Made by a program: the position numbers and the translations under genes. The notes beneath the pieces were generated by a model that was given only the letters and a program-made list of their open reading frames with translations, was not told the DNA's origin and ran no database searches. A stretch of 5,092 bases of DNA from positions 1 through 5,092 of IMG/VR virus record IMGVR_UViG_3300018477_000019. One strand, written 5' to 3'. The stretch is from a virus. Its lineage: Duplodnaviria > Heunggongvirae > Uroviricota > Caudoviricetes. Below are positions 1 through 5,092 of this stretch, in pieces. Within the stretch, counting starts at the first letter, position 1; every line of letters begins with the position of its first letter.

Positions 1-50
1 CATACGAGATACATCGGTGACTGGAGTTCAGACGTGTGCTCTTCCGATCT
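1..50. other. Illumina TruSeq indexed adapter (synthetic, non-biological) at contig terminus
   Basis: Positions 1-50 read CATACGAGAT-ACATCG-GTGACTGGAGTTCAGACGTGTGCTCTTCCGATCT, i.e. the 3' part of the TruSeq index adapter (…GGCATACGAGAT[index]GTGACTGGAGTTCAGACGTGTGCTCTTCCGATCT) with a 6-nt index ACATCG (reverse complement CGATGT). Recognised from memory of the adapter sequence; exact contiguous match over the whole fixed part. Confidence 0.93.
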
Positions 51-1026
51 CTTTCAGAACCGTCAGAACGGACCATTCAGCCTCGACACTATCGACCGAG
101 TTCAAAACGCTATCGCAAATCACGTAGTCGTAACGCCCTCGCGTTTTTAAGTCGTCCACCAGCGTATCAATCATTCGGTTTGTTGCAGCCCTATCCAGAG
201 TGTTTCCAGCGCCCTTACGGCGGAAAAGCTCGAGATCATGCAGGTTATATCCCTTTGCCCTGAGCATTCGCGCGTAGTCTCCCTGCCCCGAACCAAAATC
301 AATTCCTCTTGGCGTCTTGGCAATGATCGGGAGGATCAACGACTCATACAGATTTGATTTCAGGCTGCCACCATTACGCAACCGCATAAGCTGCGCATAC
401 GTCTGGATGTATGTTGTTTTCTCCAGATGAGAATACTCAAATACACCATAAGTTTTATTCAGATAACTTTGGTATTTTTCCTTCTCAACATCAGGGATCA
501 CAAACACCGTTAGCGGTGTGCGCGTCATTTTCGCTGCTAATGCATACTGAGCACAGTGAATAACCTCACCAGACTGAGTAGCAACACAACCACCCCACGG
601 ACCATACTTGATAACCAGTTCCGCTATGTTCTTTCGAACATATGCCATTTTCGCGCGCATATTGCCTGAGATCTGGCTTGCCGATACCTGAACAAAACCA
701 TGCTTATCTTCCAGACCGGACACCCTGCAACGCTCATCTCCGCTATCAAAATCCGTTCCGTTATGCAGTTGGTTAAACCGTACTTCGTCGTATACCGTCG
801 TTTCACAGGGCAACACATACACCGCAGCACGCGTTATTCCCAATTTACGTAGCGCCTTCGTCCTTTGGTGTCCCGCCACCAGCAAATCGCCGCGCACTAT
901 CAATGGCTTCACAAGCCCCAGCTCCCTGACGCTTTCCGCCAGCCTCGCAAGATCATCCTCACCGATAAAACGCGGGTTATATTCCGCGCCGCGTAGGTGC
1001 GTTATGTCGTAATTGAGGTGAAGCAT
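28..1026 (-). CDS. ParB/Srx-like N-terminal domain fused to a class I SAM-dependent methyltransferase-like domain; 3' end truncated/chimeric with adapter
   Basis: Minus-strand ORF (track 28..1032). N-terminal ParB-type motif (…LIVRGDLLVAGHQRTKALRKLGI…); C-terminal region has a Rossmann SAM-binding motif I (IDFGSGQGDY) and a downstream YDYVICDSVL segment. No (D/N)PP(Y/F/W) motif in the retained part. Likely start is ATG at 1026-1024, preceded by GGAGG about 8 nt upstream and overlapping the upstream stop (TGATG); an in-frame GTG at 1032 is the alternative. The last ~7 codons and the stop at 28-30 lie inside adapter sequence, so the true C-terminus is unknown. Confidence 0.8.
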   Translation of the reverse strand: MLHLNYDITHLRGAEYNPRFIGEDDLARLAESVRELGLVKPLIVRGDLLVAGHQRTKALRKLGITRAAVYVLPCETTVYDEVRFNQLHNGTDFDSGDERCRVSGLEDKHGFVQVSASQISGNMRAKMAYVRKNIAELVIKYGPWGGCVATQSGEVIHCAQYALAAKMTRTPLTVFVIPDVEKEKYQSYLNKTYGVFEYSHLEKTTYIQTYAQLMRLRNGGSLKSNLYESLILPIIAKTPRGIDFGSGQGDYARMLRAKGYNLHDLELFRRKGAGNTLDRAATNRMIDTLVDDLKTRGRYDYVICDSVLNSVDSVEAEWSVLTVLKEIGRAHV

Positions 1027-1649
1027 CAGCACACCTCCCCAGCCAGCAATGCGGATACAAATCCGATATAGCTGCCATTATCATCAACATAACGAGACAC
1101 CGCGCAGTCAAAACGATCCGCTTCCTCATCCGTTGCCGGGATTTTATGACCTCCAAATGACAGGTACTGAACTTTTACGCCTGATTTGGCCTCATCCTTC
1201 TCAAATGGGATATCCATACCTTCTGTGTCATCGTAGACCGCCACACTCAATAAGTTATCCAGTTCGCGCTGAGTAAAACCAATTGAGTCCAGAGCAAAAT
1301 CATCGGCCGCAAGATCTGCAAGCTCCGCGCTTAACAACTCTTCATCCCAACCAGCATTCAGCGGAATACGGTTGTCGGCCAGACGATATGCCTTCTTCTG
1401 ATTCTCCGTTAGCCCAGCCAGAACAATGCAGGGAACATCATCCATCCCCAACTGAGTGGCCGCAGCAATTCGACCATGACCAGCAATTACAACGTTGTTC
1501 TCGTCTATCAGGATCGGATTAGTCCATCCGTACTCCTGTATGCTGGCAACAATCTGATCTACCTGCTCCACGGAGTGTGTGCGAGCGTTCTTTTCATAAC
1601 CAATCAACACAGAAAGTGGTAAAGAAACCACATTAAGTTGTTTTGTCAT
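1026..1649 (-). CDS. ParB-like nuclease (ParB N-terminal/Srx) domain protein, 207 aa
   Basis: Minus-strand ORF with ATG at 1649-1647 and TGA at 1028-1026. Contains a ParB N-terminal domain signature (…NPILIDENNVVIAGHGRIAAATQLGMDDVPCIVL…) and an acidic C-terminal half. Its stop overlaps the start of the downstream ParB-methyltransferase gene (TGATG), indicating translational coupling. Confidence 0.8.
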   Translation of the reverse strand: MTKQLNVVSLPLSVLIGYEKNARTHSVEQVDQIVASIQEYGWTNPILIDENNVVIAGHGRIAAATQLGMDDVPCIVLAGLTENQKKAYRLADNRIPLNAGWDEELLSAELADLAADDFALDSIGFTQRELDNLLSVAVYDDTEGMDIPFEKDEAKSGVKVQYLSFGGHKIPATDEEADRFDCAVSRYVDDNGSYIGFVSALLAGEVC

Positions 1650-1792
1650 GCCGTTTATCCGCTAAAATCCCCTCGCTTGTGCAAGCAAGTGGGCCTCGGT
1701 TTGTATCCACGGCACCCTGTGGGTATGAATGACTGTCGTCAGGTCGCAACTGACGGCGGTCGCCCACCTTCCAGTAATAAAAAAGCCACCAG

Positions 1793-1822
1793 CATTAACT
1801 CCACAATGAGCTGGAGTTAATG
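1793..1822 (-). repeat. Perfect 11-bp inverted repeat with 8-nt spacer in the intergenic region downstream of the Tfa-like gene; candidate terminator hairpin or operator
   Basis: CATTAACTCCA (1793-1803) / TGGAGTTAATG (1812-1822) are exact reverse complements with spacer caatgagc. On the minus-strand transcript the hairpin is followed about 8 nt later by UUUUUUAUUA. It lies about 60 nt after the Tfa-like stop (1884) and about 145 nt before the ParB start (1649). Confidence 0.35.
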
Positions 1823-1883
1823 AGGCAGCTTTGGTTTGCGCATTATCGCAGCCCCTGATAAGCACAAGAGCTGCTGTAATGCG

Positions 1884-2597
1884 TTACTCTGGTATCAAAC
1901 AGATGTGGCCGTTATTTACCTCAATGCGAGAGTATCTCGGCTTACCATCCACGATTCCGGTAATGACAAGTTCGCCATCAGGCGACCATTCTTCTTTGTC
2001 GTCTTCAAGTACCGCGCCTTCTGGCAGATCAATACAGGCAAAAACAGGACAGCCAGGATGACGTTTATCCTCCATCGCAATCAGCATCGACTCACCGAAC
2101 CACTCTGTAGTAGCACGGCCATCAGCCGCCTGATAGTGAATCAGATACTGGTTTTCGCCATTTGCATACTGAGCACGGGCTTGAACTTCTCCCCATTCGT
2201 CACTGATACGCATTGTTACCAGTTGGGATAATTCAAACTTAAACGGAACAGACTCTGCACCAATAGATATCGGTGAGTTTTCTCGCTGCTCTGGACCTTC
2301 ACGCTTCACAATTTGAACATCTTTGACGAGCCAATCACCTGTGTTATCTACTTTTCGATACTCATCGGTATCAGGTAACTCAATAACACTCATCCCATCC
2401 GGGCAAAGCAACGATACATCTTTCGAAACACTGCGGATAATGCCGTTATTGTCATACATCATCTTTAAAGTGTGAGGCTGAAATTTCTTCTGCTCCTCAT
2501 ACCAATTTCTTCCGTCTTCAGTAAAAAGCGGTAGCACATCTGGATGTTTGCCGCGGGGATCAATAAGCGGCGCACTGATATTTTTTAAATGCATCAT
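1884..2597 (-). CDS. Tail fibre assembly (Tfa/gpG-like) N-terminal domain protein with a divergent, non-canonical C-terminal region (237 aa)
   Basis: Minus-strand ORF with tandem ATG at 2597/2594 and TAA at 1886-1884. The N-terminal ~105 aa (MMHLKNI…EDGRNWYEEQKKFQPHTLKMMYDNNGII…DTDEYRKVDNTGDWLVKDVQIVKR) matches, from memory, the conserved N-terminal region of enterobacterial prophage tail fibre assembly proteins. The C-terminal ~130 aa lacks the usual Tfa C-terminal W..Y..L..RVD-type motif. No tail fibre gene lies upstream. Confidence 0.78.
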   Translation of the reverse strand: MMHLKNISAPLIDPRGKHPDVLPLFTEDGRNWYEEQKKFQPHTLKMMYDNNGIIRSVSKDVSLLCPDGMSVIELPDTDEYRKVDNTGDWLVKDVQIVKREGPEQRENSPISIGAESVPFKFELSQLVTMRISDEWGEVQARAQYANGENQYLIHYQAADGRATTEWFGESMLIAMEDKRHPGCPVFACIDLPEGAVLEDDKEEWSPDGELVITGIVDGKPRYSRIEVNNGHICLIPE

Positions 2598-2613
2598 ATA
2601 AATAACCCTACAT

Positions 2614-2778
2614 CTATCTCATTGACTTGAATGAAACGCACCCTGACCGCAATTGCTCCCGCTTACGCCGAAAAGCTCTCTGCGCCACTAAGATGCGCCA
2701 CAGGACACCAGCAATAACCACCAGCGAGATACAAAAACACACGGCCACAACCATCAGAAAAATGCCAACACCATTCAT
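2614..2778 (-). CDS. Small membrane peptide, 54 aa (one predicted TM helix plus basic C-terminal tail); not in the supplied ORF track
   Basis: Manual translation of the minus strand from ATG 2778-2776 to TAG 2616-2614 gives MNGVGIFLMVVAVCFCISLVVIAGVLWRILVAQRAFRRKREQLRSGCVSFKSMR. The ATG overlaps the TGA of the upstream 68-aa ORF (ATGA), and the stop lies 16 nt before the Tfa-like start. An alternative in-frame ATG at 2790 would add MDSF. Weak Shine-Dalgarno only. Confidence 0.4.
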   Translation of the reverse strand: MNGVGIFLMVVAVCFCISLVVIAGVLWRILVAQRAFRRKREQLRSGCVSFKSMR

Positions 2779-2981
2779 GAAACTATCCATTCTTCAATGA
2801 ATATCTCCAGTAATGTCAAGAGATACGCCGTCCCCAGCGCGGTTCCTACCGATATAGCTAAAACAAACCTCAAAGATAACGAGGTGTCTTTCGCTTTTCT
2901 CCAGACGTAAGCGCCAGCCAGAAATACCAACAAATCTCTTATTGGAAGCGGAAACCAGAACAAATCACTCGGCAAGTCCAC
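2775..2981 (-). CDS. Small hydrophobic protein, 68 aa, two predicted TM segments; GTG start
   Basis: Minus-strand ORF starting at GTG (2981-2979), 2 nt after the TAA of the 151-aa gene, with a purine-rich GGAAGGA about 7 nt upstream; stop TGA at 2777-2775. Product MDLPSDLFWFPLPIRDLLVFLAGAYVWRKAKDTSLSLRFVLAISVGTALGTAYLLTLLEIFIEEWIVS has two hydrophobic stretches and no internal Met. Tight packing with flanking genes supports it, but the non-ATG start lowers confidence. Confidence 0.4.
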   Translation of the reverse strand: MDLPSDLFWFPLPIRDLLVFLAGAYVWRKAKDTSLSLRFVLAISVGTALGTAYLLTLLEIFIEEWIVS

Positions 2982-2983
2982 GG

Positions 2984-3439
2984 TTATATCCTTCCATTCA
3001 TTTTTATCGGATGACCAGATAGCCTTACGCAGTTGAGCTGTAAAGCTCCGGTATCAACTAAATAATCAACTAACATGATTAGAGATTCATATTCAGCCAG
3101 ATAGCTAACCTGACGCATTCGACCGCCGTTGTTCTCCAGAATGTCGGCCACCTTTGCAGCCAACTCGCTTAGACAGGAGAACTTATTCCCATATATCGTT
3201 TTATACTCGCGCTTCTGGCATTCTTCGGCTTGCGGCTGGTTATCGAGAGCTATCAGCGACCGATAACTATCAAGGAAGTCCACAATCTCATTCAGGCACT
3301 CTTTGGCTGCCTCATCGTGACTTTTTCCGTATGCTTCATGGAGGACTTTCATCCTCATCATTGCTCCGTCACACATAATCGAAAGCGCGTAAAGCACATC
3401 ACTAATCGCCATTTCTTTTTTGGTGCTTGTCGAAGGCAT
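2984..3439 (-). CDS. Hypothetical protein, 151 aa, probably cytoplasmic and helical; no recognised family
   Basis: Minus-strand ORF with ATG at 3439-3437 preceded by a strong Shine-Dalgarno (AAAGGAGAAC-ATG); stop TAA at 2986-2984. It sits immediately downstream of an intrinsic terminator, so it opens a transcription unit or is reached by read-through. No motif I could assign. Confidence 0.7.
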   Translation of the reverse strand: MPSTSTKKEMAISDVLYALSIMCDGAMMRMKVLHEAYGKSHDEAAKECLNEIVDFLDSYRSLIALDNQPQAEECQKREYKTIYGNKFSCLSELAAKVADILENNGGRMRQVSYLAEYESLIMLVDYLVDTGALQLNCVRLSGHPIKMNGRI

Positions 3440-3464
3440 CCCATGTTCTCCTTTGTCTGGATGT

Positions 3465-3490
3465 AAAAAAGCCCCGGCAATTGCCGAGGC
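3465..3490 (-). terminator. Rho-independent terminator after the 89/65-aa gene pair
   Basis: Minus-strand RNA GCCUCGGC-AAUU-GCCGGGGC followed by UUUUUU: an 8-bp GC-rich stem (7 Watson-Crick pairs plus one G-U), 4-nt loop and 6-U tract, beginning 24 nt after the TAA (3516-3514) of the 65-aa gene. Confidence 0.65.
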
Positions 3491-3513
3491 TCGTTGTTCG
3501 TTATCGTTACGGT

Positions 3514-3711
3514 TTAATGCTCGCGTCGTCCGGCGACAACTTCGGATTTGTATTTCAGGTCGCCCAGCAAGAATTGCAGTTTAAGCATCTTTGCCGCCGT
3601 GTAGTTCCCTGATTCCACAACCTCTTTCATGAGGTCATAAACGGCCGCTACATCATCAGCCAGGAACTCTTTGCGTTGCTGCTCAGTCGCACGTTTGAAG
3701 GAAATACGCAT
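3514..3711 (-). CDS. Hypothetical small protein, 65 aa (66 aa if started at GTG 3714)
   Basis: Minus-strand ORF with ATG at 3711-3709 overlapping the TGA of the upstream 89-aa gene by 1 nt (TGATG); stop TAA at 3516-3514, followed by the intrinsic terminator. Product MRISFKRATEQQRKEFLADDVAAVYDLMKEVVESGNYTAAKMLKLQFLLGDLKYKSEVVAGRREH looks helical and charged; no family assigned. Confidence 0.62.
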   Translation of the reverse strand: MRISFKRATEQQRKEFLADDVAAVYDLMKEVVESGNYTAAKMLKLQFLLGDLKYKSEVVAGRREH

Positions 3712-3980
3712 CACTCATCATCTCCTGCCGCACATACAACCTCACAAAAAACATCAGCGGAATGTTTCTCCTTGAACGAATGACGCTCAAAACCGCACTC
3801 AATATCAGGCGCAAAAACATCCACCACATACGGTCTTTCAGAATGTTTGTTTTCCCAACGATAAACCGTAGTGACGTTGAAATGTTTTAACGCTTCACGG
3901 AACTCAACGCTGCCAGTCAGGTTTTTTGAGGTCAGGTATTGCAGGAGGTTTTTTACTACTTCACGGTCTTGTACTTTCAT
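3711..3980 (-). CDS. Hypothetical small protein, 89 aa, acidic C-terminus
   Basis: Minus-strand ORF with ATG at 3980-3978 preceded by GGAGA about 8 nt upstream; stop TGA at 3713-3711. Product MKVQDREVVKNLLQYLTSKNLTGSVEFREALKHFNV…CAAGDDE. First gene of a two-gene unit with the 65-aa ORF. Confidence 0.7.
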   Translation of the reverse strand: MKVQDREVVKNLLQYLTSKNLTGSVEFREALKHFNVTTVYRWENKHSERPYVVDVFAPDIECGFERHSFKEKHSADVFCEVVCAAGDDE

Positions 3981-4024
3981 CGGGTTATCTCCGGTTTAAC
4001 CAGGGCGGGTATCGCTCGGTTTCG

Positions 4025-4062
4025 GTTATAACCTTAGGAAATTTTTTCCCACCTGTAAAGCA
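4025..4062 (-). promoter_or_regulatory. Candidate sigma70-type promoter for the 89/65-aa operon
   Basis: On the minus strand, TTTACA (plus 4059-4054), a 17-nt spacer, then TAAGGT (plus 4036-4031), about 50 nt upstream of the ATG at 3980 in a 112-bp AT-rich intergenic region. The -10 is a weak match; a consensus TATAAT also occurs within the palindrome at 4081-4092 without a good -35. Sequence inspection only. Confidence 0.25.
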
Positions 4063-4092
4063 CTTTTTATATAAATCTATAATTATATAATT

Positions 4093-4680
4093 CTATGACA
4101 CTTGCCAGAGAGCATCATGCAACTGGATACCTCCGTTGCACTGGTTGCCCCAGCCATGCCAGCCATCAGGTAAATCACCGCGAGCAAACAGCTCAATACG
4201 AGGAACATCACCTAACAGTCTTACCAGCTTGTCACGAACCACATCAGGCTTCCGTGAATGTTCCAGACGAGGCGATGTAAACGACTGAATGATCCCCGCA
4301 TCAAGGCGAGTCGGCAGTTTGCCTTTTACCGCAAACAAGCAATCTTCACTGTTCGCACGAGTCATATGCCCCATCCCCATCACCAGCTTATCTGGCTGTC
4401 GGCTACCACATTTGTTCCATGTGAAGCCCTTCATGGTCATCAGCCTGAATCCCCATGCTTTCACCACCAGCAACGCTTCTTCTGGCTGAGTCGGAACCCA
4501 CCACATGGCCAACAAACACGATTCAGGATTAGCAAGCTGCCAGACAGGAATACGAGCAATCTCCTCAGCTTTCATCGTTGGATACTTAAAACCAGCTCCA
4601 CGATTCCCATCCTTACACTTGTCTTTGTATTCCCAGGGGGGATCTGCATAAATCAGATTAAACAATGCAATTGCCTCCAT
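4093..4680 (-). CDS. MT-A70-family N6-adenine DNA methyltransferase (phage-type orphan Dam-like methylase), 195 aa
   Basis: Minus-strand ORF with ATG at 4680-4678 (GGAGG about 10 nt upstream) and TAG at 4095-4093. N-terminal catalytic DPPW motif (LIYADPPWEY) and downstream EHSRKP and ELFAR segments typical of MT-A70-type adenine methyltransferases. No adjacent restriction endonuclease gene. Confidence 0.88.
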   Translation of the reverse strand: MEAIALFNLIYADPPWEYKDKCKDGNRGAGFKYPTMKAEEIARIPVWQLANPESCLLAMWWVPTQPEEALLVVKAWGFRLMTMKGFTWNKCGSRQPDKLVMGMGHMTRANSEDCLFAVKGKLPTRLDAGIIQSFTSPRLEHSRKPDVVRDKLVRLLGDVPRIELFARGDLPDGWHGWGNQCNGGIQLHDALWQVS

Positions 4681-4988
4681 GTTAGTTGTGCCTCCGGCGC
4701 TTATCTCCGGCAGTCATAACGCTGGCCAGCTCTACAGCAAACACAACGAAAAGGGCACTAACCAGACTGATTAATGCCCTTGCCTGTTGTGTGCCGGATA
4801 TCGCCAGACAACGCTGTTTTGGTAACACGGCTACAGTTCCGCGCCGCTCCAGCTTTTACCCCTTTGCGGATAACAGGCCCTGCCTGTAACTTAGCCCCAC
4901 GTTCGCCCGAAATGCGCACCAGGCACGCATAAAGATGAGCACGAAGGAAGTAACTCCACCGCGCTTATCTTTATGTGTGAGAGTGAAT

Positions 4989-5064
4989 TGGTGGCCCCTA
5001 CCGGATTTGAACCGATGACCGTGCGATTATGAGTCGCCTGCTCTAACCACTGAGCTAAGGGGCC
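4989..5064 (-). tRNA. tRNA with CAU anticodon; acceptor stem and D-arm resemble tRNA-Ile2 (lysidine, ileX-like) rather than tRNA-Met
   Basis: Reverse complement of 4989-5064 is GGCCCCTTAGCTCAGTGGTTAGAGCAGGCGACTCATAATCGCACGGTCATCGGTTCAAATCCGGTAGGGGCCACCA (76 nt). It folds as a cloverleaf: 7-bp acceptor stem, 4-bp D stem, anticodon loop CTCATAA, T stem ATCGG/CCGGT, T loop TTCAAAT, encoded CCA. The 5' ~43 nt match my memory of enterobacterial ileX; the variable loop and T stem differ with compensatory pairing. Confidence 0.85.
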
Positions 5065-5092
5065 ATATTTGATCTGTTTGTCTGATGTGGCG

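Follow-up and report, generated by a model that had tools for sequence, protein, structure and literature searches.

A pair of overlapping ParB-fold genes on an Escherichia coli phage-plasmid

The DNA analysed here (the window, 5,092 nucleotides in full) comprises positions 1 to 5,092 of the IMG/VR virus record IMGVR_UViG_3300018477_000019, assigned to Caudoviricetes, and all of its genes lie on the minus strand. At its low-numbered end it contains two adjoining genes for ParB-fold proteins. The first encodes a small ParB of 207 amino acids (aa; 1026-1649, minus strand), and the second encodes residues 1-325 of a 457-aa protein in which ParB-fold and methyltransferase domains are fused (51-1026, minus strand). 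Bases 1-50 are non-biological and represent an Illumina adapter (no strand assigned; CATACGAGAT-ACATCG-GTGACTGGAGTTCAGACGTGTGCTCTTCCGATCT, presumably a TruSeq index adapter), where the contig end was cut off, and every E. coli match begins at base 51. The original prediction, made from the sequence alone, had placed a pair of reading frames at 28-1649; the two genes exist, but their strand needs correcting, as both are on the minus strand, and bases 28-50 are adapter read-through. Its view that the methyltransferase is truncated by the adapter was correct, since the real sequence ends at base 51, corresponding to residue 325 of 457. As a result of the truncation, the adapter-derived tail '...EIGRAHV' takes the place of the native '...GLCKAGG' and yields the false C-terminus of a 334-aa open reading frame (ORF).

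The remaining 5,042 bases share 99.9% identity with plasmid p48 of E. coli strain 1428, a circular replicon of 48.8 kb in which the complete fusion has 457 aa. The annotation of p48 includes repA, a ParA gene, an XRE repressor, holins and an endolysin, and also a lambda-gpA-type terminase, portal and capsid genes and a contractile tail. Because it carries both replication and phage structural genes, p48 is a phage-plasmid. At least 80% of the window is present in 58 out of 5,426 complete E. coli genomes, and the 15 best E. coli records are all replicons of 47.7-57.5 kb. FDAARGOS_1337 and FDAARGOS_1280 are among the carriers. Phages obtained with E. coli and Yersinia as isolation hosts also contain near-identical DNA.

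The stop codon of the small ParB gene and the start codon of the fusion gene share one base (TGATG, 1024-1028), the A of the ATG being the last base of the TGA. Together with a GGAGG (1034-1038) located 7 nt upstream of the ATG, this overlap forms the coupling junction (1024-1038, minus strand). The fusion starts at the ATG at 1026, with an alternative GTG at 1032. This arrangement, together with the assignment of both proteins to ParB by profile and by fold, bears out the prediction of a translationally coupled ParB pair.

The small ParB resembles nucleotide-switch ParB proteins

The small ParB matched phrog_620 ('ParB-like') with an E value of 7.8e-74 and scored 23.9 bits against Pfam ParB_N, slightly below the cut-off of 26.3. 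When its AlphaFold (AF2) model (predicted local distance difference test score, pLDDT, 74) was searched with Foldseek, the top matches were Noc, ParB, KorB and PadC over approximately 145 aligned columns, Noc being the best (E 3.5e-7, probability 1.0), and SerK and sulfiredoxin were among the weaker matches. Residues ~1-95 form a nucleotide-binding domain of the ParB-CTPase fold, followed by helices (residues 103-138) that superpose on the region after the nucleotide-binding domain in Noc, ParB and KorB. Residues 137-159 form an acidic, disordered linker to a small C-terminal module (residues 161-203, pLDDT ~80-87), which is built from two strands and two helices. Nine such modules gave no Pfam match even at E values up to 10. 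The module has a strand-helix-helix look that recalls ribbon-helix-helix proteins, an identity that found no support and is not claimed.

Three pocket boxes were recognized in the small ParB, including N21/R23/T24/H25 (NARTH), AGHGR at residues 56-60 and ADN at residues 91-93, and most of their residues are invariant among 33 homologues. Box II (the P motif, AGHGR; 1470-1484, minus strand), identified from sequence and alignment, contains the residues G57, H58, G59 and R60, all of which are invariant in the same set. The original prediction had noted a GHxR-type motif in each protein, and both are present, as AGHGR in the small ParB and AGHQR (residues 51-55) in the fusion. Box II is therefore GH(G/Q)R in this pair, with a histidine replacing the glutamate of the canonical GERR. 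Across the ParB domains of both proteins, the majority of the pocket-box residues are invariant and the remainder are at least 90% conserved. Both are putative nucleoside triphosphate (NTP)-binding proteins.

The partner joins a ParB-fold domain to a class I methyltransferase

The full-length fusion from p48 aligned with phrog_5475 (annotated 'unknown function') over positions 1-457 of 458 (E 1.6e-265). The family has 771 relatives at E ≤ 1e-5 among the candidates tested and approximately 308 clusters (50% identity) at E ≤ 1e-30, nearly all of them 450-490 aa long. An AF2 model built with 49 homologues was of high confidence (pLDDT 93.8, predicted template modelling score 0.90).

The first 98 residues (733-1026, minus strand) form a ParB-CTPase-fold domain, as judged from motifs, profiles and hhalign. 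The domain scored 24.3-25.1 bits against Pfam ParB_N (cut-off 26.3), and it aligned with the small ParB in hhalign with a probability of 97.9 (E 5.7e-13). The family profile matched the CDP-bound ParB of Bacillus subtilis (Spo0J, 6sdk) with an E value of 2e-8. Its boxes are YNPR (box I, residues 16-19), AGHQR (box II, window 862-876) and FNQLHNGTD (box III, residues 84-92), and almost all of their residues are invariant throughout the family. In the AF2 model, strands and helices follow one another in the middle domain (residues 99-200; 427-732, minus strand) as they do in residues 1-90, suggesting that this domain is a probable degenerate second ParB-like repeat. It aligned in register with the small ParB, although weakly (E 0.021), and carries HCAQY at the GHxR position, without the box II arginine. 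A direct hhalign comparison of residues 1-98 with residues 99-200 for internal duplication was not significant (E 0.3).

The methyltransferase domain spans residues ~232-415 of the full-length protein, and its N-terminal part (residues 232-325; 51-333, minus strand) is recognizable in the window by conserved motifs. It scored against Methyltransf_23 (PF13489) with 27.2 bits in the truncated form and 32.7 bits at full length (cut-off 27). Motif I (DFGSGQG, window 280-300) and E266 are invariant in the fusion family, as is the motif IV region DSVLNSVD (residues 305-312). The Pfam score above the cut-off, the intact motif I, the acidic residue and the Rossmann-like fold identify the domain as a class I S-adenosylmethionine (SAM)-dependent methyltransferase, in agreement with the Rossmann-type methyltransferase region that the original prediction had described. 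Judged from these features, the methyltransferase looks active; its class does not reveal its substrate.

Since both proteins contain ParB folds and are encoded on a plasmid-borne element, a partition role as a ParABS-type locus of the phage-plasmid was considered and rejected, and its probability is close to nil. The original prediction had seen no ParA ATPase and no parS-like repeat array in the window, and neither a ParA gene nor a repeat array was found there. Beyond the contig end, which had been set as a check, p48 has packaging genes and no adjacent ParA. Its own ParA (217 aa) and an 82-aa partner are located ~14 kb from the pair, beside the XRE repressor and with repA further on. As p48 thus has a separate ParA, the pair is not its partition system. 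Moreover, the two window proteins scored 29.6 and 16.4 bits against TIGR00180, whose cut-off is 58.45, neither protein gave a Pfam match to a helix-turn-helix (HTH) or a ParB C-terminal domain, and integrating phages and chromosomes carry the pair as well. Compared with canonical ParB, Noc and KorB clamps, the window proteins share the fold of the nucleotide-binding domain, the helices that follow it and boxes I-III, but they have no ParA partner, parS or canonical C-terminal dimerisation domain, and their box II differs.

The two proteins are encoded together and occasionally fused

To describe the association of the two genes, 86 loci were examined, 77 from IMG/VR and the others from genomes, metagenomes and cultured phages. 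Pairing was counted over those 60 loci whose methyltransferase sequences are distinct and whose upstream DNA extends for 700 nt or more. In 59 of these 60 loci, the fusion gene is preceded by a co-oriented small ParB gene, whose product includes the C-terminal module in 58 of the 59. The two genes overlap or are separated by at most 5 nt in 51 of the 59. The paired loci include a Bacteroides phage with an integrase and a Bradyrhizobium chromosomal prophage remnant without a terminase. Pairing is obligate apart from one solo homologue, from a Brochothrix phage, which is 27% identical and lies amid replication and recombination genes. In some phages from IMG/VR (L062, L076-L084), a tandem pair of small ParB genes precedes the ParB-methyltransferase gene.

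Natural fusions of the two proteins were also found. The proteins P0381 and P0382, which are 42% identical to each other, join the small ParB and the ParB-methyltransferase in a single chain, and the P0381 gene was confirmed on its own contig. In addition, the metagenomic protein P0288 (529 aa) appears to carry the C-terminal module of the small ParB alone at the N-terminus of a ParB-methyltransferase (a weak match, independent E 2e-4), which hints that this module is the part contacting the enzyme. The pairing and the natural fusions are strong arguments for a joint action of the two proteins, probably within a complex.

Relatives of the small ParB accompany DNA-modifying enzymes

The N-terminal ~135-150 residues of the small ParB correspond to the ParB module of ParB-DNA-methylase fusions (phrog_498, E 4e-50). 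They also match the PADLOC model MTase_II (PDLC03229; E 5.8e-37) in its ParB module only, which is the N-terminus of that Type II methylase model. Short ParB homologues are numerous, more than 6,700 of the candidates tested having E ≤ 1e-10. Partners of this module were surveyed in a sample of 80 viral loci encoding it. As a result, 52 distinct ORFs were found to be fusions with the consensus motifs TDPPY and FGGSGTT, which are motifs of DNA amino-methylases. Another 25 distinct ORFs were short ParBs followed, mostly with overlap, by another gene. The following genes encode Mom (7), a TAGT glycosyltransferase (7), an N6_N4 methylase (3), a PAPS reductase (2) or a C5 DNA methylase (1), and the remaining ones include radical-SAM, QueC/Asn-synthase-like, histidine-phosphatase and UPF0020 proteins. 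For example, a Citrobacter prophage has the order ParB (263 aa), TAGT (E 4.4e-36), terminase, and a Yersinia prophage has ParB (169 aa), Mom (E 1e-44), terminase. The ParBs associated with Mom and TAGT match only positions 1-140 of the profile of the window protein and are without its C-terminal module.

Enzymes acting on DNA bases late in infection are thus repeatedly accompanied by this type of small ParB. Because relatives of the small ParB accompany DNA modifiers, the phrog_5475 enzyme is, by association, most likely a DNA modifier too. The original prediction had proposed a self/non-self or anti-restriction module composed of a nuclease-type ParB and a methyltransferase; its DNA-modification and anti-restriction part is supported by these partners, and its nuclease part is not. 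A pair of the restriction-modification type, in which the small ParB cuts unmarked DNA and the fusion protects the DNA of the element, appears to us highly improbable. Some ParB-fold proteins do nick or degrade DNA, among which the ParB-methylase Bce_0392 and Osa have been cited (PMC5512222), and homologues are labelled 'nuclease' in several database records. This label, however, stems from an old domain name, and no features specific to a nuclease were found in the small ParB, which by its Foldseek matches and its three conserved boxes fits the NTP-switch ParBs. Furthermore, a module that is fused to methylases and also coupled to the non-methylating Mom and TAGT does not fit a nuclease-antidote logic, and the fusion of both proteins in one chain would be unusual for a toxin and its protector.

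The cassette recurs between lysis and packaging genes

Among 58 distinct loci, 44 have a gene for the terminase large subunit (TerL) as the first large gene after the pair, of the types gpA (18), Terminase_6 (17), Terminase_3 (6) and TerL_ATPase (3). In another 5 of the 58, the gene at this place encodes an SNF2-type helicase. Because the position recurs across four unrelated TerL families, the cassette is a mobile unit that has repeatedly come to lie between the lysis and packaging genes of unrelated phages. In p48, the contig end of the window is followed by the remainder of the methyltransferase gene, a gene for a phrog_1924 protein, a second small ParB gene, and the genes for the terminase small subunit (TerS) and TerL, in this order. 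The second small ParB (17719-18309, minus strand, of locus L001) has 196 aa, is 49% identical to the first, shares its C-terminal module and adjoins TerS. Two related loci (L093 and L094), whose TerS is 88% identical, have the order ParB-TerS-TerL and no ParB-methyltransferase within 3.5 kb. This suggests that the cassette of the first small ParB and the ParB-methyltransferase was inserted into the p48 lineage as an accessory element, perhaps along with the phrog_1924 gene.

Upstream of the small ParB gene is a 234-nt spacer with two long hairpins, the second of which carries a U-run and resembles an intrinsic terminator (1779-1832, minus strand). The predicted fold of the region 1640-1890 (minus strand) has an energy of -99.1 kcal/mol (z = -4.69), and none of 200 shuffled sequences was as stable. 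An Rfam scan of the structured spacer returned no family, and a promoter scan near both genes gave nothing useful, with no sigma-70-like match close to the spacer.

This position raises the alternative that the cassette is an accessory of packaging or late gene expression, in which the ParBs label DNA or arrange it for the terminase, or else control late transcription, and methyltransferase activity is of secondary importance. The proximity to terS and terL over four TerL families is in line with such a role, as are the paralogous small ParB directly before TerS in p48 and in the relatives without the enzyme, and the terminator-like hairpin, which suggests that a regulated unit begins there. 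We nevertheless regard this alternative as improbable. The pair is retained in the Bradyrhizobium remnant, where no terminase follows, and Mom and TAGT cassettes share the same lysis-terminase junction, so that the position may merely mean late expression. In addition, the invariant SAM-binding and motif IV residues argue for selected catalysis.

A proposed DNA-modification cassette and the substrate of its enzyme

We therefore favour, with a probability of roughly 55%, the interpretation that the pair is a late-expressed, two-protein DNA-modification cassette of a temperate phage-plasmid. The 207-aa ParB would be an NTP switch or adaptor, and its 457-aa partner would be an intact class I SAM-methyltransferase that also carries a ParB-CTPase fold for nucleotide binding and, probably, a degenerate second repeat. 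Both genes would be translated in a coupled manner and their products would form a complex, in which the small ParB may bring the methyltransferase to replicated phage DNA or activate it there. A methyl mark would then be placed by the enzyme ahead of packaging by the terminase, which is usually encoded directly downstream, and the mark would most likely protect the progeny DNA from host restriction or another DNA-targeting defence. A more specific version of this proposal also seems improbable to us, namely an NTP-gated methyltransferase that rides on DNA. In this version the small ParB would load onto phage DNA and, by engagement between the ParBs, enclose the DNA or slide on it together with the ParB-methyltransferase. 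The mark would be a non-canonical one, other than N6-methyladenine, N4-methylcytosine or 5-methylcytosine, and would be tied in time and place to packaging by the terminase.

Several observations weigh against the proposed cassette. The motif (D/N/S)PP(Y/F/W) of DNA amino-methyltransferases was looked for in the fusion and was not present, its motif IV being DSVLNSVD. The catalytic PC and ENV motifs of C5 methylases were likewise not found in the fusion, and PF00145 gave no match. DNA as the substrate, and hence a methyl mark on the DNA of the phage-plasmid, is what we infer from context only. The small-ParB subfamily may have a terminase-linked role that is independent of the enzyme. Finally, NTP hydrolysis is uncertain, judging from the box II histidine; because the histidine stands at the position of the catalytic glutamate, both ParB domains may bind NTP without hydrolysing it.

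The original prediction had left the class of the methyltransferase to a profile search on the recovered full-length protein. This search led to the generic class I Methyltransf_23 type and did not reach a DNA-methylase class. The full-length fusion had no match with the amino-methyltransferase families N6_N4_Mtase, MT-A70 and N6_Mtase, its match with PADLOC MTase_II is limited to the ParB part (residues 11-73), and no C5 or other DNA methylase was among the top structural neighbours of the methyltransferase domain. A classical DNA methylase identity was accordingly rejected for the fusion, as it had support from neither motif nor profile. To our knowledge, methyltransferases of the Methyltransf_23 type are not known to act on DNA.

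An alternative that we consider unlikely is a substrate other than DNA, which could be a nucleotide or signalling molecule, another small molecule, RNA or a protein. The ParB/Srx folds would then bind ATP or another NTP and act as substrate modules or regulatory modules, for instance against a host defence. The nearest folds of the methyltransferase, such as toxoflavin N-methyltransferase, UbiG, Trm9 and METTL6, are those of small-molecule and tRNA enzymes. ParB/Srx folds also handle small substrates, as in SerK and sulfiredoxin, and SAM-methyltransferase fusions have been reported to bind ATP rather than CTP (PMC12704722). However, the likeness to these small-molecule enzymes is at the level of fold, with identities of just 8-20%, and the small-ParB module of the partner otherwise joins DNA-modifying enzymes almost exclusively. 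The solo homologue amid the replication and recombination genes of the Brochothrix phage also speaks for an action on DNA.

Relation to known ParB-assisted systems and significance

The idea that ParB homologues direct DNA-modification machinery is credited to Iyer et al. 2013. The best functional analogue is 5mYOX176/ParB176, reported in 2026 (PMC13229309). In this system, a thymine dioxygenase needs a phage ParB, which has a nucleotide-binding and a C-terminal domain and no DNA-binding domain, to act on double-stranded DNA. As in the window, the gene of a small phage ParB without a recognisable HTH domain adjoins that of the enzyme, which in the case of 5mYOX176 modifies DNA after replication. 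The enzymes differ, 5mYOX176 being an Fe(II)/2-oxoglutarate dioxygenase whereas the window enzyme is a SAM methyltransferase with a ParB fold of its own. The adjacency and coupling of the two window genes are those of a ParB-assisted module, and the architecture of the small ParB is compatible with one; from the partners of homologous ParBs, the neighbouring enzyme would act on DNA, and it may depend on the small ParB.

The domain architecture of the fusion has been catalogued before. Fusions of ParB-CTPase and Methyltransf_23 domains were described as enriched in phages and were called 'predicted DNA methyltransferase' (Kaljevic et al., PNAS 2025; PMC12704722), and they have the same architecture and the same enrichment in phages and prophages as the window fusion. 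The authors prepared clones of two Methyltransf_23 fusions, one from a phage and one bacterial, for assays of nucleotide binding, constructed a pocket mutant of the phage protein, and reported ATP binding for bacterial ParB-CTPase/SAM-methyltransferase fusions (PMC12704722). The cloned proteins are comparable to phrog_5475 in architecture and may be members of this family. The survey covered the fusion alone, without a small-ParB partner, three-module fusions, a second repeat or the terminase position.

Two other groups of systems are related through the small ParB. In the ParB-N6_N4 fusions (phrog_498, MTase_II PDLC03229 and Bce_0392 of Bacillus cereus), the N-terminal module is homologous over ~150 residues; these proteins are single chains of the DPPY class, whereas the window ParB is separate, has its own C-terminal module and neighbours a non-DPPY enzyme. 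Genes of the phage Mu Mom type and of the TAGT type are coupled to small-ParB relatives at the same lysis-terminase junction, but their chemistry is unlike that of the window enzyme, and their ParBs share the N-terminal ~140 residues only.

The earlier cataloguing of the architecture and the commonness of the sequence in E. coli limit the surprise of these findings. What is new here is the pairing with a small ParB, the single-chain fusions, the terminase adjacency and the range of partners that share the ParB module. In our literature search, no paper was found on the two-gene cassette, its natural fusions or its terminase adjacency. The fusion family comprises ~300 clusters (50% identity) over phages of Proteobacteria and Bacteroidota. 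If our interpretation is true, it would represent a DNA-modifying system whose methyltransferase belongs to a class without known association with DNA, and the second type of enzyme, after the thymine dioxygenases, that depends on activation by a ParB. A general rule is suggested by the partner survey, in which a single small-ParB module, either within the same chain or encoded by a coupled gene, would serve phage DNA modifiers as varied as DPPY methylases, Mom, TAGT, PAPS-reductase-like enzymes and phrog_5475, and this rule would provide a genomic handle for discovering new DNA modifications. Carried by E. coli, the pair is a tractable test case for the role of the ParB fold in DNA-modifying enzymes, and a mark on the DNA of the phage-plasmid could alter the host range and restriction evasion of elements spreading among clinical E. 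coli.

Other features of the window

The window also encodes an MT-A70 family DNA methylase (4093-4680, minus strand; E 2.4e-23) with a DPPW motif and matches to phrog_359 and PADLOC MTase_II. An ordinary methylase of the N6-adenine type is thus present on the element beside the unusual one. Upstream of the structured spacer, a 237-aa ORF (1884-2597, minus strand) matches Caudo_TAP, a tail-fibre assembly family, over its first ~100 residues and phrog_1935, a family annotated as unknown, over the remainder. It is distant from the tail genes, and RefSeq divides it into a pseudogene and a hypothetical protein. The products of two overlapping ORFs of 58 and 68 aa (2614-2981, minus strand) are hydrophobic and membrane-like, and a GC-rich, terminator-like hairpin with a T-run (3469-3492, minus strand) follows a 66-aa ORF at 3514-3714. 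Beside the lysis genes, a tRNA gene with the anticodon CAT (4989-5064, minus strand) was called tRNA-Met by ARAGORN and tRNA-Ile by RefSeq, and the latter annotation, with this anticodon, implies a lysidine-modified tRNA-Ile2.

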